A DNA stretch of 61,908 nt from Candidatus Woesearchaeota archaeon (GCA_043807015.1 JAZDGJ010000047.1:1-61908); one strand, 5' to 3'. Numbered from the stretch's first letter, positions 6,528 to 55,124 are shown. Numbers and translations are program-made. The notes: generated by a model from the sequence alone, not told the origin.

Positions 6528-6552
6528 AATAGTTCCTATTATAGGAACTATT
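6528..6552. promoter_or_regulatory. Perfect 10-5-10 palindrome abutting the MNT start codon (probable operator)
   Basis: AATAGTTCCT-ATTAT-AGGAACTATT ends 1 nt before the ATG at 6553 and overlaps the TATA-like TTTATAAAAT. Confidence 0.6.
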
Positions 6553-7555: not shown

Positions 7556-7743
7556 AGGTTAATCCCAGAAAGCATACAAAAAGGTTGCTTTCCAAGGCAC
7601 CACTTCTAGTATTCTGTCGTGCGCCTTCCAGCGCAACTGTAATATCCTTTCTCACTTCTCCTACCTCCATCTTATGACTTTTATCATTTTTATGATAAAA
7701 ATAACAAAAGTTATAAATAGCCGTGTTCCAATAGAAAGCCCAG

Positions 7744-7917
7744 ATGGGCAAAGGCAGCGAAAAGAGGGTGAACATAGGGCTCAACGAGGCTATTCATACC
7801 CAGGCAAAGCTCATAGCAGTCCTCACCAGGGTGAACCTTGAGGATTATCTCAAGAAGGCGATTGAGGATGCTGTAAAAAAGGACAAAAAGCTGCTTGAAG
7901 AGGTGGCGAAGAAATGA
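7744..7917 (+). CDS. 57-aa ribbon-helix-helix-like protein, translationally coupled to the 910-aa surface protein
   Basis: Not in the ORF track because it is under 60 aa. The translation is MGKGSEKRVNIGLNEAIHTQAKLIAVLTRVNLEDYLKKAIEDAVKKDKKLLEEVAKK*. The KRVNIGL beta-strand followed by helices is typical of RHH proteins. TATA-like GTTATAAATA lies upstream, and the stop overlaps the ATG at 7914 (ATGA). Confidence 0.55.
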   Translation: MGKGSEKRVNIGLNEAIHTQAKLIAVLTRVNLEDYLKKAIEDAVKKDKKLLEEVAKK

Positions 7918-10646: not shown

Positions 10647-13393
10647 AGCAGGGCAAGTGGTATTATCTGCTGCTTGCGGCTGTAATAATAGCCGCTTTCA
10701 TAGTGCAAGCCATCTCGCTTTGGGAAAGCAGCGGGGAGAAGGAAGCTGAAGAAATTGTGCATGCTGCTGAAAAACTCATCCTGGCAGCCAACACAAACAA
10801 GTCAATATTCCTGCCAGGAGAAGATGCGGGAATTGCGATAGCTGTTTTGGATGAGAAAGGCAACATGGTATGCAACGCAGATGTTACCCTTGCCATAACC
10901 AGTCCATCCGGGGATACTACAATCTTTTCAACATCTGACGGCGGCATTAAGGTGTCTCCTGAATGCACAACATATGGCGTAACCGTATTGCCAGACTACT
11001 ATACGACTTATCGTAGTGGCAGCGACGGAACGTACACCATGAACCTGACTGCCATTACTCCAAATGGCATAAGCAGCATAACGGATAACTTTACGGTGCA
11101 GCCTTCAGTTGCCTTTGACGTTGCAAGAAATGCCCCGACAAGAATTTATCCTGTGATTTCGCACAACATGACAATCTCAATCAAGGCTAGCAGGGACTAC
11201 AAAGGCGCCATAACAGAACAAGTCCCGTCTGATTTTGAAATTTCCAGCCAAAAAGGGCTCAATGTAACATCAGAAGGCATCACAAAAATCCTGACGTGGG
11301 AAACTGAGATGAAGGCAGGACGCAGATATACCTTCAGTTATGAGTTCAGGGCGCCTGAGGCAAGCCCTGCACTCTACGAGCTTGGTCCTTTCAGAATCGG
11401 AAACTGGTCTGAAGCAAGAAGATGGCAGATAGCAAGCGATATCTTTGCTGCAGGAGAGAATGAAGTCACATTCCTCAGGGCTCAGGGGTGCATGCTGGAA
11501 GCCGCAACAACAGCTGCCCAGAGATTTTCATCATTATGCGCAGGCACTTATCCTGGAAACTGCCCAACAGACAGATTGTCATGCAACGATGCAACTTTTG
11601 AATCAGCAAGCCCAGGCAACAACAGGTGGGCAGGAGTGAACATTACTTCCTTCAACAGCACAATAACTGACTGCGCATCAGTAACATCTGTCAGGTTGTG
11701 CCACAACTGGACTATTAATACAGCCTCAACCTATGGAAACTGCCGCGTAGGCACAGACGTTGCAGGAGACGGGACGTATAATACAACGACAGTTGCCTGC
11801 CCGACAACAACATCCAATGCATTGGTGTGCACTGACGTAACATCCTCCGAGGTATCATGGACCTGCCAGCACTTCTTTGGCATAGCTGCTCCTGCAGCCT
11901 GGGCTATGATTGAAGCACAAAGAACCCAATCAGGGGCAGGGCACACGATAAGGTTTGATGTGCTTTACTTCAACGTTACATATACTCCTAACGTGCCGCC
12001 AAACAACACCATAATTTTTCCGGCAGGCGGCAACTTCTCAGGGAGATTCTTGGTGAATGCGTCAGTCAATAGCTCAACAGGAACAGTAGTGAAGGTCAAC
12101 CTCACCATTTCCAACAACACAGGCAACGCTACATGGCTTATACCGATGAGCCTTGGCGCAGGCACTGCAACAACAGGCTGGTGGAATGCGACATTTGATT
12201 CAACAGCACTGCCGGATGGGTTCTATAACCTCAGCGTAAACGCAACAAACAGCGCAGGACTTACAAACATCAGCCAGAACATAACGATAAGGATAGACAA
12301 CACAAAGGCAAATGTTACGGCTATTGTGCCTCTAAACAAATCAAACCTCACAGGCAGCATACTCATCAACGCTTCAATAAATGACTCTGGCTCAGCAGTC
12401 TTTAATGCGACTTTCAGGCTTATGAACAGGACTTATGCAACGGCATGGCTATTTGCAACGAGAGGCGCAGGCACAATCTCTATTGGCTGGTGGAACACAA
12501 CATTCAACTCCTTCCAGCTTGCTGACGGCAGATACAACATAACTCTTAATGCAACTGATTTTGCAGGAAACCAGCAGCTGCTCAACATAAGCGAAATCAA
12601 CATTGACAACGGAGGCCCGATAATTAGGAATGTCTCCATGCTGAACAGCATCTACCTTGTGCCGGGAGATGTTTCATTTGTTGAATGCAACGCAACAGTT
12701 GAAGATGACAACGGTCCTGACTACATATACCTGGTAAATGCAACCTTTTACGACTCTGCCAAAAGCTTTAACTCTGCTAATGACAGGAACGACCACTACG
12801 AAAATGTCAGCTGCTCAATCATTGCAGGGCAGGCATCAAATAACCAGCAGAACTACACCTGCGGATTCAATGTATATTACTACGCCAATAATGCAACATG
12901 GGTTTGCAACGTCACGGCAACATCATCCGTCACATTCAACAGGACAAACAGCTCTGTTAATCTGACTCTCGTGAACGAGCTTTTAGCCATTGCCGTAAAT
13001 AAAAGCGAGATTGATTACGGAAACATAACAGTTATGGGCACCTCTCTTGAGCATGCTGTTAACGTGAGCAACTTCGGTAATGTGCCTATAAACGTAAGCG
13101 TCAAAGGCTTTGGGTGGGATAATGAAACATGTGGCGAAAACTGGGCGATGATGTGCGAGGGAAATAACATCTCAATAGGATACGAAAGGTTCTCCAATGT
13201 GTCAGGCATGGAGTGGCAGTATATGACAAACCTGTCAAGCTCATTTAAGCCCGTCAATATCACGCTTTGGCAGAAGCAGGATGATAATAATCCAGGCAAC
13301 GACACAAACTCGACATACTGGCGTCTCAGAGTGCCCCTTGGCATATTTGGGCTTTGCAATGGCACCATAACTTTTGCGGGGGTGCTTGGATGA
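10607..13393 (+). CDS. Large sequon-rich surface protein ending in a family-B module
   Basis: N-terminal anchor YYLLLAAVIIAAFIV. Ig-like modules carry NATNSAGL and NATDFAGN motifs. The C-terminal ~300 aa are collinear with 171..1187 (..YGNITV..VNVSNFGNVPINVSV.. and ..TYWRLRVPLGIFGLCNGT). The start is uncertain: a GTG at 10643 would give a GTGA overlap with the upstream stop. Confidence 0.8.
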   Translation: MYRFAYAAEEKPVKQGKWYYLLLAAVIIAAFIVQAISLWESSGEKEAEEIVHAAEKLILAANTNKSIFLPGEDAGIAIAVLDEKGNMVCNADVTLAITSPSGDTTIFSTSDGGIKVSPECTTYGVTVLPDYYTTYRSGSDGTYTMNLTAITPNGISSITDNFTVQPSVAFDVARNAPTRIYPVISHNMTISIKASRDYKGAITEQVPSDFEISSQKGLNVTSEGITKILTWETEMKAGRRYTFSYEFRAPEASPALYELGPFRIGNWSEARRWQIASDIFAAGENEVTFLRAQGCMLEAATTAAQRFSSLCAGTYPGNCPTDRLSCNDATFESASPGNNRWAGVNITSFNSTITDCASVTSVRLCHNWTINTASTYGNCRVGTDVAGDGTYNTTTVACPTTTSNALVCTDVTSSEVSWTCQHFFGIAAPAAWAMIEAQRTQSGAGHTIRFDVLYFNVTYTPNVPPNNTIIFPAGGNFSGRFLVNASVNSSTGTVVKVNLTISNNTGNATWLIPMSLGAGTATTGWWNATFDSTALPDGFYNLSVNATNSAGLTNISQNITIRIDNTKANVTAIVPLNKSNLTGSILINASINDSGSAVFNATFRLMNRTYATAWLFATRGAGTISIGWWNTTFNSFQLADGRYNITLNATDFAGNQQLLNISEINIDNGGPIIRNVSMLNSIYLVPGDVSFVECNATVEDDNGPDYIYLVNATFYDSAKSFNSANDRNDHYENVSCSIIAGQASNNQQNYTCGFNVYYYANNATWVCNVTATSSVTFNRTNSSVNLTLVNELLAIAVNKSEIDYGNITVMGTSLEHAVNVSNFGNVPINVSVKGFGWDNETCGENWAMMCEGNNISIGYERFSNVSGMEWQYMTNLSSSFKPVNITLWQKQDDNNPGNDTNSTYWRLRVPLGIFGLCNGTITFAGVLG

Positions 13394-43199: not shown

Positions 43200-43877
43200 G
43201 TGAAAGCTAACGCTTCTCAGATAAAGGTTGCAGTTGACGCTGTTGTATTCAGCGTTGTCAATGAAAGCCTTAAGGTGCTTCTGATACGGCGCAAGAAGGC
43301 TCCTTTCAAAGGAATGTATGCGCTTCCCGGCGGGTTTGTCGAGCCACATGAAAACCTTGAAGAGGCTGTCAAAAGGGAGCTGGCAGAGGAAACCAATGTA
43401 AAGAATGTCTTCCTGCAGCAGCTTGGCGCCTATGGCGAACTGGAGAGAGATCCAAGGGGAAGGATTGTCAGCATTGCATTCCTTGCTTTCATAAGCCCTG
43501 AGCAAAAATTAGGCTCGACCAAAGATGCTGCCGGCGCAGAATGGCATTCAGCAGATGACCTGGATGACCTTGCGTTTGACCACAGGAAGATTATAGAAGA
43601 CTCCCTCAGGCAGATCAGGTATGAGATACAGACAACGAACATAGCATTCCAGATTCTCCCGACTGAATTCACACTCAGCGAGCTCCAGCACCTTTACGAG
43701 CTCGTCCTTAAAATGCCCCTTGACAAGAGGAATTTCAGGAGGCGCATAAAAGAATTGGATATCCTCAAGAAAATCAGCGGCGCAAAGATGGAAGGCGCGC
43801 ACAGGCCTGCGCAGCTCTACAGCTTCAGAGAGAGGGAGTACAAGCCGCTGAAGGACAGGATACACATCTTCACTTAG
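43200..43877 (+). CDS. nrtR: NrtR-like regulator (Nudix domain plus C-terminal wHTH)
   Basis: Nudix box GGFVEPHENLEEAVKRELAEETNV. The C-terminal block FTLSELQHLYELVL...DKRNFRRRI...PAQLYSF is typical of the NrtR wHTH. The start is a GTG. Confidence 0.75.
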   Translation: MKANASQIKVAVDAVVFSVVNESLKVLLIRRKKAPFKGMYALPGGFVEPHENLEEAVKRELAEETNVKNVFLQQLGAYGELERDPRGRIVSIAFLAFISPEQKLGSTKDAAGAEWHSADDLDDLAFDHRKIIEDSLRQIRYEIQTTNIAFQILPTEFTLSELQHLYELVLKMPLDKRNFRRRIKELDILKKISGAKMEGAHRPAQLYSFREREYKPLKDRIHIFT

Positions 43878-43930
43878 AATCTGGTTTCTGCGTTTTTCAA
43901 CCGTTTTTTGCACAAAATTTATATACTTAA

Positions 43931-43949
43931 TAGTGTATACCATACACTA
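43931..43949. promoter_or_regulatory. Candidate NrtR operator 1 (perfect palindrome)
   Basis: TAGTGTAT-ACC-ATACACTA, which contains GT-N7-AC. Confidence 0.55.
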
Positions 43950-43989
43950 AGCTCGCATAGTTGAAAATTATGCGGGCTTTTTTAAGCAG

Positions 43990-44013
43990 GTAGTAAGTGT
44001 ATAAAATACAATA
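43990..44013. promoter_or_regulatory. Candidate NrtR operator 2, overlapping a TATA box
   Basis: GTAGTAAGTGTATAAAATACAATA. The first 15 nt are identical to box 3, and GTATAAAATAC fits GT-N7-AC. Confidence 0.5.
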
Positions 44014-44028
44014 AGTAGGTGAGGATTG

Positions 44029-44337
44029 ATGGCGGCACCAACTGAAGGGGAAAAGCTTGCAGACAAGGTGGAACGGCTGACCAACGAACTGGATGCAATG
44101 CAAAGGCAGATGGCTGCCTGCAGGCATGAGTTTGGCGAGCCTAAAGCTACCACCAAGGACGTATTTGATACCGTATTACTCAGATACGAAGGGCATGGCT
44201 CTGACCCAGAGCCCGTATATGAATACATCAGAAAAAAAGAGCATGGCTGGACGAGGGTTTGCGATATTTGCGGATACCGGCAATATACTACGGAATCAAA
44301 ACCAATAGTTACTGGATTCGAACCAGATTTCAAATAA
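44029..44337 (+). CDS. Hypothetical ~100-aa protein with a possible split Cys pair (Zn-ribbon-like)
   Basis: ...ACRHEF... and ...VCDICGY.... It is preceded by box 2 and lies between nrtR and pncB. Confidence 0.45.
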   Translation: MAAPTEGEKLADKVERLTNELDAMQRQMAACRHEFGEPKATTKDVFDTVLLRYEGHGSDPEPVYEYIRKKEHGWTRVCDICGYRQYTTESKPIVTGFEPDFK

Positions 44338-44348
44338 TTTTTTAAAAA

Positions 44349-44372
44349 GTAGTAAGTGTATAAGTGACAATA
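44349..44372. promoter_or_regulatory. Candidate NrtR operator 3, upstream of pncB
   Basis: GTAGTAAGTGTATAAGTGACAATA. GTATAAGTGAC fits GT-N7-AC. Confidence 0.5.
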
Positions 44373-44385
44373 ATGGTGATGCAAA

Positions 44386-45747
44386 ATGAAAGCTGCTGCT
44401 GAAATGGAAAAGAAAACGATGCTTACTGACCTATACCAGCTTACGATGAACGCAGCTTACTTTGACAACAACAAGGACGAAACAGCAACTTTTGACCTTT
44501 TCATCAGGAAATTGCCTCTGGACTGGGGTTATTTCATAGCAAACGGCGTTGAGGATGCCGTTGATTATGCGACAAACATCGGCTTCACCGAGGAAGACTT
44601 GGATTACTTGAGCAGAGAGGGGCTTTTCAAGCAGGAATTTCTGGAACAGCTTCGCGGCTTCAGATTTGAGGGCGATATCTATGCTGTGAAAGAAGGCACT
44701 CCCATATTTCCAAATGAGCCTGTTCTCAGAGTCACTGCAAAAAGAACCCAGGCGCAGTTCCTAGAGACAGCGCTTCTCAACATCATCAACTTCCAGACAA
44801 TGATTGCCACAAAGGCAAACAGGGTTGTAAATGCTGCCCAGGGAGCCAAAGTAGTGGACTTCGGGCTTAGGAGGGCGCAGGGAGAGGATGCTGCAATGAC
44901 TGGAGCAAGGGCAGCCTACATTGGCGGAGCTGTGGCTACAAGCAATGTTAAGGCAGGCATGGAATACGGCATCCCCATCTCAGGAACCCATGCGCACAGC
45001 TTTGTGATGAGCTTCCCAACAGAGCTTGAGGCGTTCAGGGCTTATGTCAAGACGTTCCCAAAGAATGGCACGTTGTTGATTGACACTTATGATACCTTGC
45101 AGGGAGCAAGAAACGCAGCCATAATTGCCAAAGAACTTGAGGCAAACGGCGGAAGGCTTGGCGCTGTGAGGCTTGACTCTGGCGACCTTGCAGATCTTTC
45201 GATAAGAGTCAGGAAAATTCTGGATGAGCAGGGACTGCAGTATGTCAAGATAATGGCAAGCAACGACCTCAACGAATACAAGATTGAAGAACTCATAAAA
45301 CAGGGCGCAAAAATAGACGGTTACGGCGTCGGCACAGAGATGATTACTGCAAAGCCTGTGGCTGCAATTCCAGGTGTCTACAAGCTTGTGGCAGATGCTG
45401 GCGGTGCCAAGATAAAGCTCTCCGAGGGCAAGCAAACACTCCCCGGCTTGAAGCAGGTTTACAGGCTCACTGGGCTTGATGGAAAATTTGCTGGCGATAC
45501 AATAGCAATTGAAGGGGAACAAGCAGAAGGAACTCCATTGCTTGAACTGGTTATTAGAAACGGCGCGCGAGTAAATGCTAGAAGACCACTTGCAGCAATA
45601 CGCCAGTATGCGCTTGACAATGTTGCAAAGCTCCCAGACTGCCTCAAAGATGTGAGGGTGAAGCAGCAATACAATGTTGCTGAATCCACGGGATTAAAGC
45701 ACCTTGTCGAGCAGCTTACAATGAAATATTCGGCAGCGCTTGTTTAA
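44386..45747 (+). CDS. pncB: Nicotinate phosphoribosyltransferase
   Basis: MLTDLYQLTMNAAYF, FDLFIRK, NIINFQTMIATKA and VVDFGLRRAQG. Confidence 0.9.
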   Translation: MKAAAEMEKKTMLTDLYQLTMNAAYFDNNKDETATFDLFIRKLPLDWGYFIANGVEDAVDYATNIGFTEEDLDYLSREGLFKQEFLEQLRGFRFEGDIYAVKEGTPIFPNEPVLRVTAKRTQAQFLETALLNIINFQTMIATKANRVVNAAQGAKVVDFGLRRAQGEDAAMTGARAAYIGGAVATSNVKAGMEYGIPISGTHAHSFVMSFPTELEAFRAYVKTFPKNGTLLIDTYDTLQGARNAAIIAKELEANGGRLGAVRLDSGDLADLSIRVRKILDEQGLQYVKIMASNDLNEYKIEELIKQGAKIDGYGVGTEMITAKPVAAIPGVYKLVADAGGAKIKLSEGKQTLPGLKQVYRLTGLDGKFAGDTIAIEGEQAEGTPLLELVIRNGARVNARRPLAAIRQYALDNVAKLPDCLKDVRVKQQYNVAESTGLKHLVEQLTMKYSAALV

Positions 45748-45755
45748 CGCTAATA

Positions 45756-45776
45756 TTAGTGTATAAAAAACACGAT
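45756..45776. promoter_or_regulatory. Candidate NrtR operator 4, upstream of pncA
   Basis: TTAGTGTATAAAAAACACGAT. GTATAAAAAAC fits GT-N7-AC. Confidence 0.45.
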
Positions 45777-45913
45777 GTGGAGGCGATGAAAATGATGGAA
45801 AAAGTGGAGGAAATCGTCGGAAGGGTCAGGGGAGAAGGAACTGACTACACTGTAATGATAGTTTACGGCGGGCCTGAAATGGCTTACTTTGACGAGGAGA
45901 TGAGGTGAGCAAA

Positions 45914-46543
45914 ATGGCAACTGCAATATTCTGGAACGTTGACACGCAGTTTGACTTCATGAGGAAAGAGGGCAAGCTCTATGTGCCTGATGCAGAGAAG
46001 ATTGAGCCAATGCTTGCGAGGATTACCAGGCTGGCAAAGGAATACGGCATCAAGGTTGTGAGCACCGCAGATAGTCATGACAAAAGTTCCCATGAGCTTG
46101 CAGAAAATCCAGACTTCATCACTACATTTCCTGAGCACTGCATATACGGCACTCCGGGAGCAGAGTATGTTCCTGCAACAAAGCCTGAGAATGCCTATGT
46201 GCTTGACTGGCGCAACAAAACGCTGAATGAGCGCCTTGTTTTGGCAAAAAGAAACATTGTGCTGACAAAGGACGACTTTGACGTATTCAACAAGCAGCAT
46301 GGCTCACCGCATGTGGAGCAAGTGCTTGAGCTGCTGAAACCAAAAAAGGCTGTGGTCTATGGAGTTGCAACAAATGTCTGCGTAGACTATGCAGTGGAAG
46401 GCTTGCTGAACAGAGGCATAGAAGTGTATGTTTTGGGTGATGCCATAAAGGGCTTGCCTGGCATACCCGACCCTGTGGAGAAATGGCAGCACCGAGATGC
46501 AAGAATAATTGGCACGGATAACTTGGAGACAATGCTAAGGTGA
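45914..46543 (+). CDS. pncA: Nicotinamidase (isochorismatase family)
   Basis: AIFWNVDTQFDFM, STADSH and VVYGVATNVCV (catalytic Cys). ATG at 45914. Confidence 0.85.
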   Translation: MATAIFWNVDTQFDFMRKEGKLYVPDAEKIEPMLARITRLAKEYGIKVVSTADSHDKSSHELAENPDFITTFPEHCIYGTPGAEYVPATKPENAYVLDWRNKTLNERLVLAKRNIVLTKDDFDVFNKQHGSPHVEQVLELLKPKKAVVYGVATNVCVDYAVEGLLNRGIEVYVLGDAIKGLPGIPDPVEKWQHRDARIIGTDNLETMLR

Positions 46544-46547
46544 GAAA

Positions 46548-47417
46548 ATGGCCCTTGAAAGAATACTGTTGCCTGAAATGGACCCTGAAAAAGTGGCTGG
46601 CGAGATAGGAGAGTTCATTGTGGCAGCCTGCAGCGAAGTTGGCGCAACAGGAGTTGTCATAGGGCTCTCAGGCGGTGTTGATTCAACCACAACTGCAGCC
46701 TTGGCAGCGGACGCATTCCGAAAGCAAGCTGCAGGGCTTGAGGTTGTTGGCTACATCCTTCCGACCAAACTTAACGCGCAAGCAGACACATTAGATGGAA
46801 TAAGTGTCGCCAAGAATTTGGGCATCAGGTATGAAGTCCTGGACCTCGAGCCAATAGTTGAGGCTCACAAATGCACAAATCCTGAGGCATTCAGGTCCAA
46901 CTACGAAAAGGGAAACATGATTTCCAGGATAAGGGCAAACATCCTCTCAACAAAGGCAGCAACAGAGAGGAAAATTGTAATGGGCACTGGAAACAAAGAC
47001 GAGGATTTTGGCGTGGGCTATTACACGTTATTCGGCGATGGCGCTGTGCACATGAGCCCGATAGGCAATCTTCCGAAAAGGCTCGTGAGGCAGATGGCAA
47101 GGCATTATGGCTTTAATGGCATTGCAGGCAAGGAGCCGTCAGCAGGCTTGGAGCCGGGGCAGACAGACTTCAAAGATTTGGGGTATAGCTTTGACTCTGT
47201 TGAAATAGTGCTTGAGGGCTTAAGGCAGGGTTTCACAAGTGAACAGTTGTACATTCATCCACAGGTGAGAAAGTGCATAGAGCATGAATTGGGGCAGAAA
47301 TTCAACAGCGTTGATGCTGCAGTCAATGACATCATCAGAAGGCACTATGAAATAGCAATCCCGAAAATGAAAATAATCCATCCCGAGGCAGCAAAAGTTA
47401 CGCTGATTTACAGGTGA
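46548..47417 (+). CDS. nadE: NH3-dependent NAD+ synthetase
   Basis: The PP-loop VVIGLSGGVDSTTTAALA and the GTGNKDEDFGVGYYTLFGDG block. Confidence 0.9.
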   Translation: MALERILLPEMDPEKVAGEIGEFIVAACSEVGATGVVIGLSGGVDSTTTAALAADAFRKQAAGLEVVGYILPTKLNAQADTLDGISVAKNLGIRYEVLDLEPIVEAHKCTNPEAFRSNYEKGNMISRIRANILSTKAATERKIVMGTGNKDEDFGVGYYTLFGDGAVHMSPIGNLPKRLVRQMARHYGFNGIAGKEPSAGLEPGQTDFKDLGYSFDSVEIVLEGLRQGFTSEQLYIHPQVRKCIEHELGQKFNSVDAAVNDIIRRHYEIAIPKMKIIHPEAAKVTLIYR

Positions 47418-47422
47418 GAAAA

Positions 47423-48493
47423 ATGACAACGCACAGCAGCGGATTCAACAATCCCATACCGGCAACTGACGCCATAATAGAATATGAAGGCGGCATAGTC
47501 CTAATAACCAGAAAAAACCCGCCGTACGGACTTGCAATACCAGGCGGCTTTGCAGAGGGAGGGCTCACATTGGAGGAAAATGTGAGGAAAGAAGCCTTGG
47601 AAGAAACAGGACTGACTTATATTGTAAAAAAACACATACCTTTTGCAATTTCTGATAAACCCAAGAGAGACCCCCGCGCGCACATTATAAGCATAGCATA
47701 TGTCGGCAGGGGCTATGGCGAGCTTGTTGCCGGAGACGATGCTGCTGCAGCGAGAGTCTATTCTTTTGACGAGGTAATGCACCTGGCAAAGGGCGGTGAA
47801 ATTGACGGAATGAGGCTGGCATTTGACCATGCTGCAATACTTGGAAAATACCTTGCTGAAAGGCCAAAGCTCGGAATTGACAAGCCGCTTGGAAAAGCAG
47901 GAGTTATTGGGAGATTCAGGCCGCCCCATCTTGGCACCGCATTGCTGCTTGAGGCACTATGTGAGCAGGCAGAACACGCAATAATAGGCATAGGCAGCGC
48001 CAACAAGTACAACTGCAGGAATCCCTTCACTGCAGAAGAGGCGAAACAGATGGTAGACCTGCTGCTGAAGCCGAGATTCTCCAACTACGAATTTGTTGAG
48101 GTTCAGGACTACGGGCACATTCCGGAACACAGCGACGGGAAAAAATGGGTGGAGGAAGTGGCAAACTCCTTTGGTGCGCTTGATGCATTTGTCTCGGGAA
48201 ATAACTATGTCCATGAGCTTTTGGTCGCGAAATATCCCGTGCTCAACTCCTATGATATAATCCCGAGGGGGAAATGGGTGAAAGCGAGCGGCACAATGGT
48301 CAGGCAGGCAATGGCAGCTGGAAGAGACTGGAAAATGCTTGTGCCTGAAGCCGTAGCCGGATATATTGAGCGCAACAGACTGGACCAGCGTTTCAGGAAG
48401 GAATTCGGCTTGGAGACAATAGCGCGGATGGCTGATGAAGAATACCTCAATACAAACACTGCCGCTGAGAGGCAGCGCGTAAAGGGGGGATGA
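47423..48493 (+). CDS. nadM: Fusion of an N-terminal Nudix hydrolase and a C-terminal archaeal-type NMN/NaMN adenylyltransferase
   Basis: Nudix box GGFAEGGLTLEENVRKEALEETGL. The C-terminal half aligns with archaeal NMNAT: VIGRFRPPHLGT, IIGIGSANKYNCRNPFTAEEA and SGTMVRQAMAAGRDWKMLVP. Confidence 0.8.
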   Translation: MTTHSSGFNNPIPATDAIIEYEGGIVLITRKNPPYGLAIPGGFAEGGLTLEENVRKEALEETGLTYIVKKHIPFAISDKPKRDPRAHIISIAYVGRGYGELVAGDDAAAARVYSFDEVMHLAKGGEIDGMRLAFDHAAILGKYLAERPKLGIDKPLGKAGVIGRFRPPHLGTALLLEALCEQAEHAIIGIGSANKYNCRNPFTAEEAKQMVDLLLKPRFSNYEFVEVQDYGHIPEHSDGKKWVEEVANSFGALDAFVSGNNYVHELLVAKYPVLNSYDIIPRGKWVKASGTMVRQAMAAGRDWKMLVPEAVAGYIERNRLDQRFRKEFGLETIARMADEEYLNTNTAAERQRVKGG

Positions 48494-48496
48494 ATT

Positions 48497-49264
48497 ATGG
48501 GGCTCTTGGACGAATACGAAATAGTTGAGCAAATCAGCGAAGGAGGGTTTGGCAGGATATTTGTTGCCAAGCATAAGGCGCTGGAAGAGCTTGCCTGCAT
48601 CAAGCAGAACCTAACTCCTGGTGCAGAAGATGTTGAGCTTCTTAGGCAGGAAGCTAAGATACTTTGGAAGCTCTGCGAATACCATTCAATTCCCCATGCA
48701 AAGGGATTCTATCTTTTGGACAGCACAAACGCTGCCTTGGTAATGAGCTACATAGAAGGAAAAACACTGGACAGCATTATCACCAAGCACGGAAGATTGC
48801 ACCCAGAAGATGCCTCCTGGATCACAGAAAGGCTTCTTGGCGCATTGTACTATGCCCACTCATACGGCGTTATTCATGCAGATGTCAAGCCCCAAAATGT
48901 GATTATTGAGCCAAAAAAGCACGACATCAAACTGATTGACTGGGGGCTTTCTGTCTACAGGCCGACGAGCATGACAAAGCCAGTGGGCTCAACTCCCGCG
49001 TATGCTGCCCCTGAAATCATACAAGGCAAGCCGCCTATTCCAGAATCAGATATCTATGGAGCAGGAATTGTGCTGATGTATGCGCTTGGCGGCAATCCTG
49101 ACAAAAAAGTCTTGCCCAAGGATGTGCCTGACAAGCTGGCTGATTTGTGCAATAGCATGCTTCGATATGATCCCAATGAAAGGCCAAATTGGGAAAGGAT
49201 GAATCCCATTCAGAGGCTATCTGACATCAGGCAGGAGGTCTTTGGCAGGAGGCATACTGCCTGA
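48497..49264 (+). CDS. Hanks-type Ser/Thr protein kinase, catalytic domain only
   Basis: SEGGFGRIF, ACIKQ, IHADVKPQNVII, DWGLS and TPAYAAPE. Confidence 0.8.
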   Translation: MGLLDEYEIVEQISEGGFGRIFVAKHKALEELACIKQNLTPGAEDVELLRQEAKILWKLCEYHSIPHAKGFYLLDSTNAALVMSYIEGKTLDSIITKHGRLHPEDASWITERLLGALYYAHSYGVIHADVKPQNVIIEPKKHDIKLIDWGLSVYRPTSMTKPVGSTPAYAAPEIIQGKPPIPESDIYGAGIVLMYALGGNPDKKVLPKDVPDKLADLCNSMLRYDPNERPNWERMNPIQRLSDIRQEVFGRRHTA

Positions 49265-49319
49265 TTGAGCTGTAGCAAGCTCGAGATAGCGGGAGCTATA
49301 AACGACGGAGGTGGTATAT

Positions 49320-50312
49320 ATGTACAGCTGGGGAGGAAGTACAAAAGAGTGGAAAAAGCCAGGTGGCTACAAGTTTGACTCAGCAAGGGCGCCTTACCTG
49401 GACAGCCTTGCAGCAGCATCAAAAGCAAAGGGAGGGAGGCATTACTCAACAAGGTCAAGCCCGGATTTAAAGCTTGTTGATCCAAAAGGCAAGACCATAA
49501 CAAGCGACAGCCTGAACGCGATAATTTTTGGCATAGACGTTACTGGCTCAATGTCTGAATGGCCGAGGGAAATATTTGACAGGCTGCCATTATTTTACCA
49601 GACATTGTCGCAGTACAGGCCTGACCTTGAGGTAAGCTTTGCAGCAATCGGCGACGCATCATGTGACAACTACCCGTTGCAGGTGAACAACTTTGGGAAG
49701 GGTGTTTCACTTGAGGAGCATGTCAAAGCCCTTTATCCTGAGGGTGGCGGAGGGGGGCAGGTGAGCGAGAGCTACGAAATGTTCGGTTACTTTGTGCTGG
49801 CTCATGCAAAGCTGCCTAAGGCTGTTTCGCCATTCTTGTTCATTTGCGGCGATGAGAAGTTCTACAACGCAGTTGACCCCGCGCAAGTCGAACACTACAT
49901 TGGAGACAAACTTCAGGGACCACTGGACTCTAAACTTGTGCTTGAAAAGCTGATGCAGAAGTATGACATTTTCTACCTGCACAAGCCGTATGGAAGCGGA
50001 GGAGACGAAGACACAACTGCTGAAGTCAGGGAGCATTGGGCAAGGGCCATCGGACCCCAAAGGGTGATTGCCTTGCCAAGCTATGACCGGGTTGTGGACA
50101 TAGCAATGGGAATAGTGGCAAAAAAGTGGGGGCAATTCGGCGACTTCAAGGACAACCTAAGCGCAAGACAGACTGACCCGAATGTCGTTGACGGAGTATA
50201 CAGGAGCCTCAGGTTCATTACTGAAGACGGCTCAACCGGCTCAGTAAGGAACAAGACCCTTCCGCCAGGAAAGACAATTTCCCTCAAGAAGCTGCCTCCT
50301 GGGAAAGCTTAA
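49320..50312 (+). CDS. vWA-like (MIDAS-containing) protein
   Basis: IIFGIDVTGSMS resembles the DxSGS MIDAS start and is followed by alternating beta/alpha sequence. GGAGGTGG lies 7 nt upstream of the ATG at 49320. Confidence 0.5.
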   Translation: MYSWGGSTKEWKKPGGYKFDSARAPYLDSLAAASKAKGGRHYSTRSSPDLKLVDPKGKTITSDSLNAIIFGIDVTGSMSEWPREIFDRLPLFYQTLSQYRPDLEVSFAAIGDASCDNYPLQVNNFGKGVSLEEHVKALYPEGGGGGQVSESYEMFGYFVLAHAKLPKAVSPFLFICGDEKFYNAVDPAQVEHYIGDKLQGPLDSKLVLEKLMQKYDIFYLHKPYGSGGDEDTTAEVREHWARAIGPQRVIALPSYDRVVDIAMGIVAKKWGQFGDFKDNLSARQTDPNVVDGVYRSLRFITEDGSTGSVRNKTLPPGKTISLKKLPPGKA

Positions 50313-50349
50313 TTTTTTTATTTTTTTTAAATTCAGAAGGTGATCCAAA

Positions 50350-51258
50350 ATGGGAGCAAAAGCAATCGTGACAATTCCGCCATATGCGCCATACATGAAA
50401 GAAGTTTTGAACAACACGATAGTTTCGGGCATAAGGCTGAATACAGTGATGCCATTACATGAAACTCTGGATGATGCAGTTAAAAGGCTAAATGACGAAG
50501 CGCAAAAAGCTGGCAAAGACCTTTGGATTGACCTCAAGTGCAGGCAGCTACGAGTAAAGACATATGGCGTGCCGCCATTTACTGAAATTGAACTAACTCA
50601 TAACCTTACCGTTGATGCGGGCACAACAGCCTATTTCTCAGGCGGGTTGGAAAAGGCAACAATATTGAGCGTTAAGAATAACAGGCTGCTAATGCAGGAG
50701 GGTCCAAAAAGGGTGGTGGGTCCTGGAGAAGCCATCAACATACTCCATCCCTCCTTGAAGATAGAAGGCTATCTTACTGATACAGACAAAAAGTATATTG
50801 AGGCATGCAGCAGGCTTGGGCTCCATAATTATATGGCTTCTTTTGTTGAAGGCGCCGAAGACCTAGAAGAGATTGGCAAGCTTGACGGGCAGGCAAATCT
50901 CATTGCCAAGATCGAGTCCCAAAAAGGAATTGAATATGTGCAGACGGGCTGGAACGGAAAGTCAAGGCTCATGGCTGCAAGGGGAGACTTGTTTGTTGAG
51001 CTGAAAATGCCCCATCACATAACGCAGGCTGTTGAAGCAATAGTCCGCAAAGACCCAAATGCCATTGTTGCATCAAGAATTTTTGATTCCCTCGCACAAA
51101 GCCTTGAGCCTTCATGCGCTGACATTGGAGATGCAGACAACCTGCTGAGAATGGGCTACAGGGCTTTCATGTTTGGAGACGAAATTTGCATGGAGCGCAA
51201 CCAAATAATGAGCGGGCTGAACCTGCTTAGGGCAATGGCCCAGAGGTATGAAAAATGA
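50350..51258 (+). CDS. Pyruvate-kinase-like TIM-barrel protein lacking the C-terminal domain
   Basis: AIVTIPPY..GIRLNTV, DLKCRQLRV, MASFVEGAEDL, LIAKIESQKGI (one mismatch to the PK signature as I recall it) and MAARGDLFVEL. Only 302 aa. Confidence 0.6.
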   Translation: MGAKAIVTIPPYAPYMKEVLNNTIVSGIRLNTVMPLHETLDDAVKRLNDEAQKAGKDLWIDLKCRQLRVKTYGVPPFTEIELTHNLTVDAGTTAYFSGGLEKATILSVKNNRLLMQEGPKRVVGPGEAINILHPSLKIEGYLTDTDKKYIEACSRLGLHNYMASFVEGAEDLEEIGKLDGQANLIAKIESQKGIEYVQTGWNGKSRLMAARGDLFVELKMPHHITQAVEAIVRKDPNAIVASRIFDSLAQSLEPSCADIGDADNLLRMGYRAFMFGDEICMERNQIMSGLNLLRAMAQRYEK

Positions 51259-52130
51259 AAGCGCAACTCTTCAGCATTATTGCAGGGAGCGAAGCATGCA
51301 ATGCGAGATGCCCATTTTGCATTTCAAAAATGACACCCCTGTGGGGAATTGAGCTGAAAGAGCCTGAAGTAAATTGGAGAAACTTCAGGATAGCTGCCAA
51401 TTATGCGAAGCAGGCTGGTGCGATTACGGCAATGCTTACGAGCAAAGGCGAGCCTACGCTGTTCCCTGAACAGATTACAAAATACCTCAAAGCATTAAAG
51501 GAGCATGACTTCCCCCTGCTGGAGCTCCAGACAAATGGCATTCTGCTCTATGAACAGCAACAGAAGTATGACACATTCCTCAATGAGTGGTATGGCTTGG
51601 GGCTGACTACGGTTGCTGTCTCTATTTCACATTACGATCCTGAGGCGAACCGCCAGATATATCTTCCTCACAAAGACAAATACATAAACCTGCCTGGCTT
51701 AGTTGACAACCTGCACGCTAAAGGCTACTCAGTTAGGCTGGCATGCGTAATGGCAGACGGCTTTATACACAGCCCTGAGGGGCTTGAAAAGCTGATAGCC
51801 TTTGCCAGAGAAAATGAAGTTGAGCAGCTTACTGTAAGGCCAGTAAACAAGCCTCAGAATCCCAGAAACGGCAATATCGAAACCTGGGTTGACTCCCATT
51901 TCCTCAAGGATAAGCAATTGAGGGACATCACAGCATACCTATCTGAAAAGGGGCACCAGCTTATGAAATTGCCGCATGGAGCTACAGTTTATGACGTAAA
52001 TGGGCAGAATGTGTGCATGGCAAATTCCCTGACCATTGAAAAAGAGGGTGAGGATGTGAGGCAGCTGATATTTTTCCCTGACGGGCATTTAAGGTTTGAC
52101 TGGCAATACAAGGGGGCGGTGCTACTATGA
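51255..52130 (+). CDS. Radical SAM enzyme (MoaA/viperin-like core, no SPASM extension seen)
   Basis: CNARCPFC is a CX3CX2C motif. Also SKGEPTL and LQTNGILL. ATGA overlap on both sides. Confidence 0.75.
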   Translation: MKAQLFSIIAGSEACNARCPFCISKMTPLWGIELKEPEVNWRNFRIAANYAKQAGAITAMLTSKGEPTLFPEQITKYLKALKEHDFPLLELQTNGILLYEQQQKYDTFLNEWYGLGLTTVAVSISHYDPEANRQIYLPHKDKYINLPGLVDNLHAKGYSVRLACVMADGFIHSPEGLEKLIAFARENEVEQLTVRPVNKPQNPRNGNIETWVDSHFLKDKQLRDITAYLSEKGHQLMKLPHGATVYDVNGQNVCMANSLTIEKEGEDVRQLIFFPDGHLRFDWQYKGAVLL

Positions 52131-53170
52131 AAAAACTTGAAGCAATGAAGGCAGTATATTGTTACTTTTTCCCTGAGGTAAGGCAGATTGTTCACGACAC
52201 TGAATCAGGGATTGACAACACGATATTCAATGTAACAACACCAGCAAGTAATGTTTCCAGGAACCTCGAATCAATCCTCAAAAAAAGCCTGGATGTTCCA
52301 TCAACTCCGGAAGGGTATGTCAATGTTGATGCAATACACATCCCAATAATTAGGCGGCTGGTAGAAGCATATTCCCCTGTTGTGCATGGTCTTAAGGAAT
52401 TCAAGCACAGTTATCCAACTTCAGGCTCAAGCGAAGGTTTATTCCATCTGTTGGCAAAACTAAAGGCTGATGGCGTCAAGGCAATAAATGTTCTGAATGG
52501 CGAATACGAAGGCTATGGCATACAGGCTGAGAACCTGGGCATGAAAGTGAACGTAATAGACCCTGAAACAGAAAGCATTGACAACCTTGTGCCAGGCTAT
52601 TGGTTTGTCAGCAACCCTTCTGCGAGAGACGGGAATGTATTACCGAACGATTTCATCAGTCATCTGTGCGATTTAGGCAATAAGGTGATTGTTGACCTTG
52701 CATATGTTGGCTCAACGAGCCAAAGGAAATTTGATATCAGCAACAAGAACATACCTGCAGTTGTATTGTCCTTGAGCAAGCCATTTGGCTTATTCAGATA
52801 CAGAATAGGCTTCACTTTCAGCAGGGAAGAAGTCCCTTCGCTTATTGGAAACAAGTGGTTTAAAGACACCATAAGGCTGCTGCAGGGATTAAAGGTTGTT
52901 GAAGAATTTGGAATGGCAGGACTCTACAATCGTTACCGCCAAACCCAGGAAAGCATTGTTGCAGGCATCAACAAAGAATTTGGAATTGGGATGCGCACCA
53001 GTGATGTTCTTTTGCTGGGACACCTTGAAAAAGATGATGCTGCAAAACTCAGCCAGGAACAGCTCAGCATAATAACGGATTTTAAAAGAGGCGATGGCTA
53101 CAGGTTCTGCCTTACACCATACTTCGAAAAGCTGGAAGGAGGGACTTTAAAATGGCAGCCACTCTTGTAG
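52127..53170 (+). CDS. Fold-type I PLP aminotransferase-like protein (HisC-like)
   Basis: VLSLSKPFGLFRYRIGF matches the S-x-SK-x-FG..G.R.G PLP-lysine block. YPTSGSSEG lies upstream of it. Confidence 0.55.
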   Translation: MKKLEAMKAVYCYFFPEVRQIVHDTESGIDNTIFNVTTPASNVSRNLESILKKSLDVPSTPEGYVNVDAIHIPIIRRLVEAYSPVVHGLKEFKHSYPTSGSSEGLFHLLAKLKADGVKAINVLNGEYEGYGIQAENLGMKVNVIDPETESIDNLVPGYWFVSNPSARDGNVLPNDFISHLCDLGNKVIVDLAYVGSTSQRKFDISNKNIPAVVLSLSKPFGLFRYRIGFTFSREEVPSLIGNKWFKDTIRLLQGLKVVEEFGMAGLYNRYRQTQESIVAGINKEFGIGMRTSDVLLLGHLEKDDAAKLSQEQLSIITDFKRGDGYRFCLTPYFEKLEGGTLKWQPLL

Positions 53171-54006
53171 TCTACAAGAGAAGCATGTACGAGCTTTACA
53201 GAGGGAGTCCGGACAAAAAAGCAAGAGATTTCGTAAATGGCAATACGCCTGATGCGGTAGGAATCAGAAACAGCCATGAAACGCAGCAAAAGACCCTTGA
53301 AATAGTGGTCAGTGCTCTGGAAGCTGAAGGAATAAAGCACGAGGAGATTTACAGGGCAAAGCTGCAAGCTTATTCTGGCATAGACAAGAATGACTTGGTT
53401 GTATCCGTAGGAGGAGACGGCACATTCCTTGAGGTTTCCCATTATCTTTCAAAAGTGCCTTTGCTTGGCGTTAACTCAGACCCTAAAACTAGCATTGGCT
53501 TTTTTTGCACCGCAGATGCCGGAACCTTTCAGGGTATCCTTAGGAATATTAGGAATGCGAAGCTGACTGAATTGAGCCGGCTGGAGCTTGAGCTTGATGG
53601 CAAACGAATGCCTAAACTCGTGCTTAATGAAATCCTGGTTGCACATACAAACCCAGCAACTGTCACAAGGTACAGGCTGTCGGCAGATAACTTCAGGCAG
53701 GAATACAAGTGCAGCGGCCTTCTCGTCTGCACCCCGGCAGGCTCGACAGCGTGGATGTACAACGAAGGAGGGGTAGTTATGCCCCTTACTGCAAGAGAAA
53801 TGCAATATTTTTCAAGAGGCCTAAGGGGAGAGAGTCCGAAGTTTGTAAAGGAACTTGCTGTGCAGTCACTAACAAGAGAAGGGAAAATATATGTTGATGG
53901 CGCACATGTTCAGTATGACTTCACTCTTGGGAGCCAGTTGCGTATAAGAAGTGGCAGCCCGCTTACAGTTGTTGGAGATTTGGAAGCAAAAAGATTGAAA
54001 TTTTAA
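53152..54006 (+). CDS. nadK: NAD kinase
   Basis: VVSVGGDGTFL, NEILV and LLVCTPAGSTAW. Confidence 0.9.
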   Translation: MAATLVVYKRSMYELYRGSPDKKARDFVNGNTPDAVGIRNSHETQQKTLEIVVSALEAEGIKHEEIYRAKLQAYSGIDKNDLVVSVGGDGTFLEVSHYLSKVPLLGVNSDPKTSIGFFCTADAGTFQGILRNIRNAKLTELSRLELELDGKRMPKLVLNEILVAHTNPATVTRYRLSADNFRQEYKCSGLLVCTPAGSTAWMYNEGGVVMPLTAREMQYFSRGLRGESPKFVKELAVQSLTREGKIYVDGAHVQYDFTLGSQLRIRSGSPLTVVGDLEAKRLKF

Positions 54007-55124
54007 TGCCTTGCGATATGCTCAATAATCCGCTCAAGCGCAGCCTGCTCTCCTCTGTCTGAATCAAGCTCTCTGTCAATTGTATCGCCAAGCAGGGGCA
54101 TATCAGAAACAAAGCCAGCAAATCCGAATTCTATTCTAAGAATTCCCGCATACCTCCTTCTTCCCTGGTTGACAGAATCCACAGTTTCCCTTGTTTCCAT
54201 CTCTACGCAGATGCACCCGTTGTCAGCGCCTCTCTTAAGCTGTTCAAAAGTTTGGTTGACGACCGCATTTACATTCAGGTTGAGACCTTCAAAACCATGA
54301 CCTGTGGTCAGTACGTTATGCATCGGATAGACAAACACTCTGCCGTCCTCAAGGTCAGTGTCATCAACTATGCCCGTGGGGAATACAAGGTCATGCCTTT
54401 GCATATCCTCGCGGAGTCCTCCTACCCTGCCAAACATAAACATTTCAATGCGCGGCTTGTCGCCTCTCTCCTTCGCTATTGCCGCATACTCTATAAGCAT
54501 CTTGTCAATGAGTATTCCCGCCTGGTCGGAAAAGACATACCCGAGATTCGCCACTTTCCTCCCATTGACATCTACAATCTGGGAAGGGAGGTATTCATCA
54601 GGCCTTTCTTCAAGAACCTTAGCCTGCTTTGCAACTGCATTCAAAGGACCGAATATTACCCGAGTGATGTCGCTCATTGGTTCTTGTTCAAAAAGCTTCT
54701 TGACAAAGTCATAGGCAAAGTTGTCATAGGCGTGGTTTGTTTTTCTTGCCTTCCCCTCAACTTCCAGCGAGCGGAAAGTTGTGTTGCGGTTGCTTGCCTG
54801 CAAATATGCATCAATCATCTGCTCGTATCTTCTTCTCCTGCCGAAGCCGCTGTACTGCGGAATGTGAAGCCCGCCATGCTGATAATAGAGCGGCTCGCGA
54901 CCGTTGTTCTGCAAAACCCTGTCAAAGCCCCCGCCAACAGATGCAAGCATATGCTCGAGCTTTGACGGCAGCACGCCATTGTGGAGATTTATTGAAGTAA
55001 CATCTTCAGGCGAAACATTCTTACCGAAAAGCCTGGTCTCTGTATATGTCACTATTGCTTCCGGGCTGAATATTGGAGTGCTCATATGTGGCGTTGTAGG
55101 ATTCCAATATTTAAATCTTTCCAT
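54003..55124 (-). CDS. Hypothetical protein, possibly of the PNP/UDP-phosphorylase-like fold
   Basis: FGRVGGL...DLVFPTGIVD... and ICVEMETRE resemble the Gly-loop and EME blocks of the nucleoside phosphorylase/nucleosidase family. The call is weak and by eye only. Confidence 0.35.
   Translation of the reverse strand: MERFKYWNPTTPHMSTPIFSPEAIVTYTETRLFGKNVSPEDVTSINLHNGVLPSKLEHMLASVGGGFDRVLQNNGREPLYYQHGGLHIPQYSGFGRRRRYEQMIDAYLQASNRNTTFRSLEVEGKARKTNHAYDNFAYDFVKKLFEQEPMSDITRVIFGPLNAVAKQAKVLEERPDEYLPSQIVDVNGRKVANLGYVFSDQAGILIDKMLIEYAAIAKERGDKPRIEMFMFGRVGGLREDMQRHDLVFPTGIVDDTDLEDGRVFVYPMHNVLTTGHGFEGLNLNVNAVVNQTFEQLKRGADNGCICVEMETRETVDSVNQGRRRYAGILRIEFGFAGFVSDMPLLGDTIDRELDSDRGEQAALERIIEHIARH

Follow-up and report, generated by a model that had tools for sequence, protein, structure and literature searches.

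MoaA, the GTP 3',8-cyclase, and viperin, which converts CTP to 3'-deoxy-3',4'-didehydro-CTP (ddhCTP), are radical S-adenosylmethionine (SAM) enzymes that both act on the ribose of nucleoside triphosphates (NTPs). The pairs BtrN/BtrR, DesII/DesI-DesV and BlsE/BlsH combine a radical SAM enzyme, which oxidises or dehydrates a sugar hydroxyl to form a ketone, with a pyridoxal 5'-phosphate (PLP) enzyme, which aminates the product. Proteins of the von Willebrand factor A (vWA) type are components of: (i) the TerY-P triad, in which a TerY-like vWA protein is grouped with a PP2C phosphatase and a Ser/Thr kinase with a zinc-ribbon or OB fusion, and which is thought to act as a phosphorylation-dependent and metal-dependent switch operating through the metal ion-dependent adhesion site (MIDAS) (PMC11090510), and (ii) the ADP-ribosylglycohydrolase (ARG)-centric systems regulated by NrtR or WYL proteins, in which vWA proteins are regarded as 'chaperones' (Iyer et al. 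2022, PMC9503650). In this latter survey of viral nicotinamide adenine dinucleotide (NAD) systems, vWA proteins appear only as ARG-system chaperones, and partners of the pyruvate kinase, adenylosuccinate synthetase or radical SAM type are not mentioned (PMC9503650). Here, these systems are compared with a block of five genes (48497-53170) embedded in an NAD operon of a Candidatus Woesearchaeota archaeon (GCA_043807015.1, JAZDGJ010000047.1:1-61908; the entire 61,908-nt stretch analysed is termed the window). The genes encode, in order, a Ser/Thr kinase (STK), a vWA-fold protein, a pyruvate-kinase-like protein (PKL), a radical SAM enzyme (rSAM) and a PLP enzyme of the aminotransferase type.

Two cassettes recurrent in DPANN NAD operons

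Comparison of ~190 related loci resolves the five-gene block into two independently inherited cassettes that stand side by side in the NAD operon: cassette A (STK-vWA-PKL) and cassette B (rSAM-PLP). Confidence in this division, taken jointly with the fold and residue assignments given below, is high. Both cassettes are shown to be recurrent accessories of DPANN NAD operons, and the arrangement is not attributed to chance, since more than 100 independent loci have parts of it in common. The initial annotation of the window had described five tightly packed genes on one strand within an NAD operon, and their coordinates, strand and spacing are confirmed. Five + strand open reading frames (ORFs) occupy 48497-53170 between a Nudix-nicotinamide mononucleotide adenylyltransferase (NMNAT) fusion gene, which ends 3 nt upstream, and an NAD kinase gene, with which the block overlaps by 19 nt; within the block are gaps of 46 and 37 nt and two 4-nt ATGA overlaps. 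The GC content of the block equals that of its flanks. The same annotation considered the genes to be uncharacterised, and this view holds. None of them is an ortholog of a housekeeping gene of histidine, molybdopterin or glycolytic metabolism, as all NCBIfam equivalog scores fall far short of the respective cutoffs.

Cassette A was traced by a scan for PKL, limited to one genome per species, in which 259 genomes were found to encode the protein and 80 fetched loci were mapped by tblastn. A vWA gene lies no more than 1.3 kb upstream of PKL in 50 of 51 archaeal loci and in all 18 bacterial loci, in which the two genes are directly adjacent. The kinase and the MIDAS (vWA) protein had earlier been likened to the signalling pairs of stress or defence modules, and a kinase-vWA pairing does recur: STK adjoins vWA in 42/45 archaeal and 40/45 phage loci. 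STK is found in none of the bacterial loci (Chloroflexota/Anaerolineae, one Polyangiaceae and one Thermoanaerobaculales), even at relaxed thresholds. NMNAT is located just upstream of the cassette in 38 of 45 archaeal and 17 of 17 bacterial loci. In archaea the cassette is typically part of a long NAD operon, and in Chloroflexota it forms a self-contained four-gene operon of NMNAT, vWA, PKL and Gln-dependent NadE, one example of which (L073) resides on a 4.4-Mb chromosome. The gene after PKL is variable (NAD kinase, inosine-uridine (IU)-nucleoside hydrolase, PnuC with a NadR-like kinase, ARG, NadA or NrtR), with NAD kinase directly following PKL in many loci.

Two further features of the archaeal loci are noted. 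In 23 archaeal loci (e.g., L009 9100-9972, L012 9053-9934 and L041 4095-4991), the vWA and PKL genes are separated by the gene of a conserved ~290-aa protein with no family match; the window lacks this protein, a possible fourth member of cassette A. NadA (quinolinate synthase), which directly follows PKL in five loci (L018, L026, L040, L042 and L055), is a sporadic operon member, and NadB is rare (L001 and L058).

Cassette B was traced by a metagenome scan with an alignment of the PLP enzyme, which provided 53 usable loci. The rSAM gene is immediately upstream of the PLP gene in 31 of the 33 loci with enough DNA to judge, mostly with gaps of 0-15 nt, and a truncated rSAM gene is present in 8 further loci. 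The two proteins are fused, in the same order as the gene pair, in a 666-aa protein (P0363). On a Chloroflexota contig, the rSAM gene (63% identity) overlaps by 4 nt the gene of the PLP enzyme that follows it (36% identity, E 2e-81). NAD genes are present in 16 of 28 cassette B loci of at least 5 kb (NrtR, NAPRT, PncA, NadE, Nudix, NMNAT, PnuC, NadR-like and NADK), and no conserved third partner of the rSAM-PLP pair was found among its neighbours outside NAD operons. An rSAM gene without the PLP enzyme is also noted inside NAD operons (L007, L025, L041 and L135), where it often abuts a phosphoribosyltransferase, PncA or NadE gene.

Several candidate extensions of cassette B were rejected: (i) that the ~660-aa proteins of the PLP family are rSAM fusions in general, as only P0363 is fused and the unrelated N-terminal domain of the others has no Pfam match, (ii) that the 307-aa gene product after rSAM in L004 is an aminotransferase homolog, as the comparison gives E 27 and the protein is instead NAD-kinase-like, and (iii) a specific link of rSAM-PLP to quinolinate synthase, as the window has no NadA gene and just 13 loci of the two kinds encode it. 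As separate observations, the NadA, rSAM and PLP genes of L149 (5002-8026) are joined by 4-nt overlaps, and a 4960-aa protein (P0385) has segments that match the PLP enzyme, a Nudix/NrtR protein and NAPRTase, so that the PLP gene is again near NAD genes; P0385 probably reflects read-through in the gene calling of a recoded genome.

The initial annotation had further proposed that all five genes, or the last three as a trio of PKL, rSAM and aminotransferase, serve one small-molecule biosynthetic pathway. These three genes are joined by ATGA overlaps in the window, and the closest relative of the window retains the order STK-vWA-PKL-rSAM; the single pathway is nonetheless highly improbable and already largely refuted by synteny. 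PKL goes with vWA and STK, rSAM follows PKL in 1 of 45 loci and the aminotransferase in none, no homolog of the PLP enzyme is encoded in 84 PKL loci, and neither vWA nor PKL is encoded in any of the 53 PLP-enzyme loci. The rSAM and aminotransferase genes are a cassette of their own. In the closest relative (STK-vWA-PKL-rSAM-ARG-NADK), ARG takes the place of the aminotransferase and, therefore, the tandem of A and B is considered lineage-specific. The five-gene block as a whole is scattered in related genomes, whereas each cassette by itself is not.

The explanation favoured overall, at a probability of roughly 0.45, is that cassettes A and B are independently mobile accessories that stand in tandem within an NAD operon of the NrtR type, with cassette A supplying nucleotides to neighbouring enzymes and cassette B modifying a ribosyl or sugar-phosphate compound, as proposed below.

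Cassette A: proteins, phage relatives and predicted function

The first protein, STK (48497-49264, + strand), is a minimal Hanks-type Ser/Thr kinase (Pkinase, 136 bits) that consists of a bare 255-aa catalytic domain. The family hallmarks are all present in the translation, namely the Gly loop (GGFG), the VAIK lysine (ACIK) and the HxD (HAD), DFG-like (DWG) and APE motifs, with HAD indicating a non-RD kinase. The vWA gene (49311-50312, + strand) encodes 333 aa if translation begins at a GTG codon; the start of its database homologs corresponds to the ATG at 49320, for a length of 330 aa. The protein has no match in Pfam, NCBIfam or PADLOC and is related to phrog_2971 of PHROGs (E 4e-26). Its AlphaFold2 model (predicted local distance difference test score, pLDDT, 90.1) is that of a true vWA fold, with integrin beta-I, vWF A1/A3, SpaC and NorD as the top Foldseek matches in the PDB (all probability 1.0). 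The MIDAS-like positions D73-x-T75-x-S77 and D178 are invariant, and the loop in which the middle MIDAS Thr is expected instead reads EGGGGGQ. The vWA homologs form 1120 clusters, every one of which is annotated 'hypothetical'.

PKL (50350-51258, + strand; 302 aa) has the A-domain barrel of pyruvate kinase. It scores 53.8 bits against PF00224 (cutoff 30), yet only profile positions 119-317 are covered, and 67.7 bits against the pyruvate kinase equivalog TIGR01064 (cutoff 306). PKL was aligned with E. coli PykF, the sequence of which agrees with the PDB PykF alignment. R29, K187, E189, D213 and S242 of PKL align with PykF R32, K220, E222, D246 and T278, are invariant in 14 family members and are kept in the phage homolog; N31 (PykF N34) and D61/K63/R68 (of the PykF DTKGPEIR motif) are also retained. 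The catalytic and metal-binding residues of pyruvate kinase are conserved across archaeal, bacterial and phage members. The B domain (lid) is ~26 residues shorter than that of PykF, and a C domain is missing, as no PK_C match is detected and residue 302, directly behind the barrel, is the last of the chain. Changes that are specific to the PKL family and invariant near the active site include S242-R243, Q66 and a GPGE sequence in the lid. Membership of a thymidine hypermodification or phosphonate (phosphoenolpyruvate (PEP) mutase) cluster was considered and rejected, since PKL matches pyruvate kinase, not PEP mutase, and its context is purely NAD.

PKL homologs form 1175 clusters, share 55-68% identity across Woesearchaeota and are named 'pyruvate kinase' by their sources. 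This name, the intact catalytic residues and the reduced genomes of DPANN archaea agree with PKL being the glycolytic pyruvate kinase of the organism, located in an NAD operon by historical accident with vWA and STK as unrelated neighbours. Such an origin is very unlikely, given that the obligate pairing with vWA is kept from DPANN archaea to Chloroflexota (L073) and phages, and that PKL falls far below the equivalog cutoff and lacks the PK_C domain.

Relatives of cassette A are found in phages. A scan of IMG/VR with the vWA alignment provided 45 loci, mostly on contigs of 50-485 kb: 28 STK-vWA-PurA-like, 11 STK-vWA-PKL, 2 vWA-PKL-PurA (L098 and L103), 3 vWA-PurA and 1 vWA alone. The PurA-like gene (PF00709, 186 bits) is a genuine adenylosuccinate-synthetase homolog. 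The same gene order is seen among cultured and deposited phages. In ~200 Bxz1/Dandelion-type mycobacteriophages the kinase, vWA and PurA-like proteins are gp267, gp268 and gp270, and in Rhizobium phages and Vibrio phage Va1 the vWA gene is next to PurA. The 485-kb phage LR745208 encodes a DnaJ-STK, vWA and PKL of 33-37% identity to the window proteins. Clustering of all phage neighbours revealed that the triad genes alone recur; therefore, vWA (usually with STK) is the constant element, and the adjacent enzyme, PK-like and/or PurA-like, is the variable one. The phage cassettes are mostly away from NAD genes.

Among further features of the phage loci, the kinase of LR745208 (L085 6937-7971) carries an N-terminal DnaJ (J) domain, and a Thg1-like tRNA-His guanylyltransferase and an ARG are encoded a few kb downstream of it. 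In some Bxz1-type phages (among them MH910040 Sauce and NC_023725 Nappy), the match to the vWA gene is split into two parts that span 1767 nt rather than 1005 nt, which looks like an intein or inserted domain; a 595-aa Sauce protein is the top structural match in BFVD.

In the favoured explanation, PKL would be a stripped-down phosphotransferase of the pyruvate kinase type that most likely uses PEP to regenerate ATP or GTP from the nucleoside diphosphate. Local NTP regeneration is the simplest function, because the pyruvate kinase active site is intact and the neighbours (NAPRT, NMNAT, NadE, NADK and PurA) all consume ATP or GTP. Cassette A may thus serve the adjacent nucleotide-consuming enzymes, which are NMNAT, NadE, NAPRT and NADK in cells and the PurA-like enzyme in phages, and the co-occurrence of vWA, PKL and PurA in two phage loci fits with GTP regeneration for PurA. 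The odds that PKL has this PEP-to-NTP activity, as predicted from its residues, are about even. The vWA protein, an obligate partner of PKL, would probably act as a binding or regulatory subunit, through Mg2+ and its MIDAS, in place of the missing allosteric C domain, and STK (in archaea and phages, not in Chloroflexota) would probably switch the complex by phosphorylation. By analogy with described vWA-kinase modules, these regulatory roles are possible and are proposed tentatively, with the balance leaning somewhat against them.

The invariant changes near the active site and the short B domain also raise a different prospect, in which PKL is a PEP-dependent kinase or phosphotransferase for a non-canonical acceptor (a pyridine nucleoside, nucleotide or ribosyl intermediate, e.g., nicotinamide riboside (NR), nicotinic acid riboside (NaR), ADP-ribose, a ribose phosphate or NAD), vWA presents the substrate or metal, and cassette A provides a new NAD step. 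Consistent with this prospect, PKL strictly occupies, in archaea and bacteria alike, the position flanked by NMNAT on one side and by NadE or NADK on the other, and the slot downstream of PKL is filled in turn by IU-nucleoside hydrolase, PnuC, NadR-like kinase and NadA, which are called NR- or ribose-handling. A non-canonical acceptor is, however, decidedly unlikely, as the phage cassette is mostly not beside NAD genes and can swap PKL for PurA, and PKL is canonical at its contacts with PEP, Mg2+ and the transferred phosphate.

Cassette B: proteins and predicted chemistry

The rSAM protein (51255-52130, + strand; 291 aa) is a single-cluster radical SAM enzyme (PF04055, 38.2 bits) with a CNARCPFC motif. 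The CxxxCxxC cysteines (C15, C19 and C22) are invariant, two other cysteines (C164 and C254) are conserved, and cysteines for auxiliary clusters are missing. In particular, the second [4Fe-4S] cluster of MoaA, bound by three C-terminal cysteines, is absent from the rSAM family, in which only C164 and C254 are found beyond the first motif. The initial annotation had left the choice between a viperin-like and a MoaA-like enzyme to a structural search. The AlphaFold2 model (pLDDT 86) is near both, with MoaA and viperins as the closest Foldseek matches (template modelling (TM) score 0.64-0.70, identity 13-18%) and BlsE, a nucleoside-sugar radical SAM enzyme, also among the matches; the protein is below the equivalog cutoffs of both families. 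Thus, as modelled, rSAM is a member of the radical SAM superfamily with a MoaA/viperin-like fold, and assignment to either subfamily does not follow. Members of the rSAM family share 58-67% identity, are nearly always 291 aa and are found in Woesearchaeota, Aenigmarchaeota, Chloroflexota and Riflebacteria. An unexpected phmmer match of rSAM residues 46-217 to PDB 8ap6 chain M1, labelled as the oligomycin sensitivity-conferring protein (OSCP) of trypanosomal ATP synthase (E 2.5e-5), is also noted.

The PLP enzyme (52127-53170, + strand; 347 aa; PF00155 Aminotran_1_2, 25.2 bits) belongs, as judged by sequence comparison, to the HisC/CobD clade of fold-type I PLP enzymes. The PLP lysine, K218, is part of an SLSK motif (S215-x-S217-K218), and D190, Y193, S215, S217, K218, R226, R321 and R326 are invariant in 30 sequences. 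HisC and CobD are the best matches of the family profile in the PDB (E ~1e-9) and the best NCBIfam matches, with scores far below cutoff for HisC (TIGR01141, 34.2 bits vs 276.6) and CobD (30 bits vs 291); no his genes are found in the 53 PLP-enzyme loci. This is a small family: at 50% identity, 424 clusters belong to it among 1.84 billion representatives.

In the favoured explanation, rSAM would abstract a hydrogen from a ribosyl or sugar-phosphate substrate of NAD/ADP-ribose metabolism to generate a carbonyl by oxidation or dehydration, and the PLP enzyme would then transaminate (or decarboxylate) the phosphorylated product. The PLP step is viewed as an optional extension, because rSAM also occurs alone in NAD operons. 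This chemistry is proposed because rSAM is nearest in fold to enzymes that target the NTP ribose, the nearest relatives of the PLP enzyme bind phosphate esters, and the BtrN/BtrR-type pairs offer an analogy. Keto/amino chemistry predicted on such grounds is doubtful.

The similarity of rSAM to viperin and the prevalence of the triad in large phages bring in a conflict system as an unlikely alternative to the accessory cassettes proposed here. Cassette A would then be a vWA-kinase switch, like TerY-P or the vWA proteins associated with ARG and NrtR, that guards or manipulates the NAD/ATP pool in phage counter-defence or cell defence, and rSAM would be a viperin-like maker of an antiviral or signalling nucleotide. 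STK matches the PADLOC kinase models mad6 and PD-T4-6, rSAM has a weak and partial match to PADLOC pVip (E 8e-10), and ARG genes are frequent neighbours. In addition, TerY-P triads are defence modules (PMC11090510), and the vWA 'peptide-binding chaperones' of ARG and NrtR-type neighbourhoods are read as parts of conflict systems (PMC9503650). Set against this, the vWA, PKL and PLP proteins have no PADLOC match, a PP2C phosphatase is absent, and rSAM scores far below the viperin cutoff. The genes are also placed in biosynthetic operons with translational coupling and, unlike typical conflict genes, evolve slowly, as seen in the 55-68% identity retained across Woesearchaeota.

Several points weigh against two accessory cassettes with the functions proposed: (i) the PKL lid is shortened and the residues of the K+ site are changed compared to PykF (Ser to Val, Thr to Leu and Glu to Gln), (ii) T278-Q279 of PykF is S-R in PKL (S242-R243), (iii) NTP regeneration leaves an obligatory MIDAS protein unexplained, (iv) many DPANN NAD operons (e.g., L135, L153 and L157) are without cassette A, (v) most phages pair vWA with the PurA-like enzyme and have no PKL, (vi) ~12 of 28 long cassette B loci are without a nearby NAD gene, and (vii) rSAM scores 30.8 bits against the viperin model NF038283 (cutoff 180) and 34.9 bits against the MoaA model TIGR02666 (cutoff 284). 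Because of the lid, K+-site and T278-Q279 changes, the substrate of PKL could differ from that of pyruvate kinase. It follows from the fourth point that cassette A is dispensable for NAD salvage, from the fifth that vWA is not simply a subunit of a pyruvate kinase, and from the sixth that the substrate of cassette B need not be NAD-derived. A broader combination, of low probability, would make cassette A an unrecognised PEP-driven part of pyridine-nucleotide metabolism common to DPANN archaea, Chloroflexota and giant phages, through a new phosphorylation of an NAD precursor or by physically coupling PEP to NMNAT/NadE (PurA in phages), and would make rSAM, with or without the PLP enzyme, an anaerobic maker, repairer or derivatiser of a pyridine or ADP-ribose nucleotide, e.g., an amino-sugar NAD analogue or the product of an O2-independent NadB-type step.

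The host operon and comparison with known systems

The window is part of a cellular, Woesearchaeota-like DPANN archaeal genome, as its homologs are named Woesearchaeota or Nanoarchaeota and its neighbouring genes include housekeeping genes (SerRS and RtcB). A phage origin was rejected on these grounds, with megablast against phages returning nothing and with GH57 and PIN-KH ATPase genes also present. The same-strand gene array at 43200-54006 is the NAD operon, with an NrtR-like regulator first. All of its genes are on the + strand. The NrtR-like Nudix/winged-helix gene (43200-43877), which is likely the head of the operon, has 52% identity (tblastn) to the NrtR of a related locus (L002) that bears Pfam WHD_NrtR. 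A small unannotated ORF of 102 aa (44029-44337) stands between it and the NAPRTase gene. The salvage core, assigned by Pfam and NCBIfam matches, consists of NAPRTase (44386-45747), nicotinamidase (45905-46543), NAD synthetase (46548-47417) and the fusion of a Nudix domain to an archaeal-type NMNAT (47414-48493), and its gene order (44386-48493) is matched in related loci (L001-L059). NAD kinase (53152-54006; Pfam N-domain, 31.3 bits, cutoff 25.5, with NCBIfam NAD kinase models) is the last gene of the operon.

The 102-aa ORF encodes two Cys pairs (CRH...CDIC), and small ORFs are located at similar sites in some related operons (e.g., an 81-aa ORF in L149). A perfect 19-bp palindrome, TAGTGTATaccATACACTA, is located at 43931-43949 directly 3' of the NrtR gene. 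A 15-nt sequence, GTAGTAAGTGTATAA, is repeated exactly and in direct orientation at 43990-44004 and 44349-44363 (0.04 expected by chance), and its copies are ~25-35 nt 5' of the small ORF and of the NAPRTase gene. The palindrome and repeat look like operator and promoter elements of the NAD operon, as far as sequence and position indicate. Riboswitches and tRNAs were not detected by an Rfam structured-RNA scan and a tRNA search. Downstream, a 373-aa protein (54003-55124, - strand) is without a sequence match in Pfam, NCBIfam, PHROGs or the PDB; at least 14 related loci nevertheless encode it (22-76% identity) next to and convergent with NAD kinase. Elsewhere in the window (3708-13393), three successive ~910-aa proteins with bacterial Ig-like or cadherin-like domains are probably DPANN cell surface proteins.

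Both cassettes are abundant (the vWA, PKL and rSAM families each comprise more than 1000 homolog clusters) and strongly conserved, and their functional annotation does not go beyond misleading names such as 'pyruvate kinase' and 'MoaA'; DPANN metabolic reconstructions probably assign PKL to glycolysis as its pyruvate kinase. The placement of a vWA-dependent mini pyruvate kinase between NMNAT and NadE in both archaea and bacteria points to an unrecognised layer of NAD or adenylate homeostasis, as does the interchange of PKL with a PurA homolog in giant phages. As the triad is present in ~200 cultured Bxz1-type mycobacteriophages, it is genetically testable now. The rSAM-PLP pair could represent a new nucleotide-tailoring chemistry tied to NAD/ADP-ribose turnover in anaerobes.

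No curated family of Pfam, NCBIfam equivalogs or PADLOC names either cassette, PHROGs assigns no specific function to the phage relatives, and a full-text literature search found no description of either cassette. No described pathway corresponds to either cassette; support is good for the modular architecture and not for the chemistry. Likeness to known systems is noted for each cassette. Similarly to TerY-P, cassette A has an adjacent vWA protein and Hanks-type kinase and is a mobile module that joins varied effector genes. It differs in that (i) a PP2C phosphatase is absent from the window and from related loci, (ii) the kinase has no zinc-ribbon or OB fusion, (iii) Pfam and PADLOC vWA/TerY models do not detect the vWA protein, and (iv) the third gene encodes a PK-like or PurA-like nucleotide enzyme, and the cellular context is NAD biosynthesis. 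With the ARG-centric systems, the loci share the co-occurrence of a Nudix-type NrtR regulator, an ARG and a vWA protein in ADP-ribose/NAD-linked neighbourhoods; here, by contrast, NAD salvage enzymes form the core and sequences are highly conserved. PKL shares with E. coli PykF the A-domain TIM barrel, the catalytic Arg, Lys and Ser/Thr and the two Mg2+ carboxylates, and is distinguished by the lack of the C-terminal allosteric domain, a shorter B domain, a changed K+ site and constant pairing with vWA.

Of the cassette B proteins, rSAM has its best structural matches in MoaA and viperin and shares with them the CxxxCxxC cluster. Unlike MoaA, it has no second cluster, and it differs from both in the conserved C164 and C254 and in its PLP-enzyme partner. 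The PLP enzyme keeps the PLP lysine, the Asp-x-Ala-Tyr motif, the Asn-Pro region and the C-terminal arginines of HisC (histidinol-phosphate aminotransferase) and CobD (threonine-phosphate decarboxylase); in contrast to these enzymes, it is always beside rSAM and never in his or cob operons. The two-step logic proposed for cassette B is that of BtrN/BtrR, DesII/DesI-DesV and BlsE/BlsH, although aminotransferases of the BtrR, DesI-DesV and BlsH type are from different PLP subfamilies, an auxiliary cluster is present in BtrN, and these pairs are encoded in antibiotic gene clusters, not NAD operons. The two cassettes are thus likened to modules of known kinds, cassette A to a vWA/kinase module and cassette B to a radical-SAM/PLP tailoring pair.

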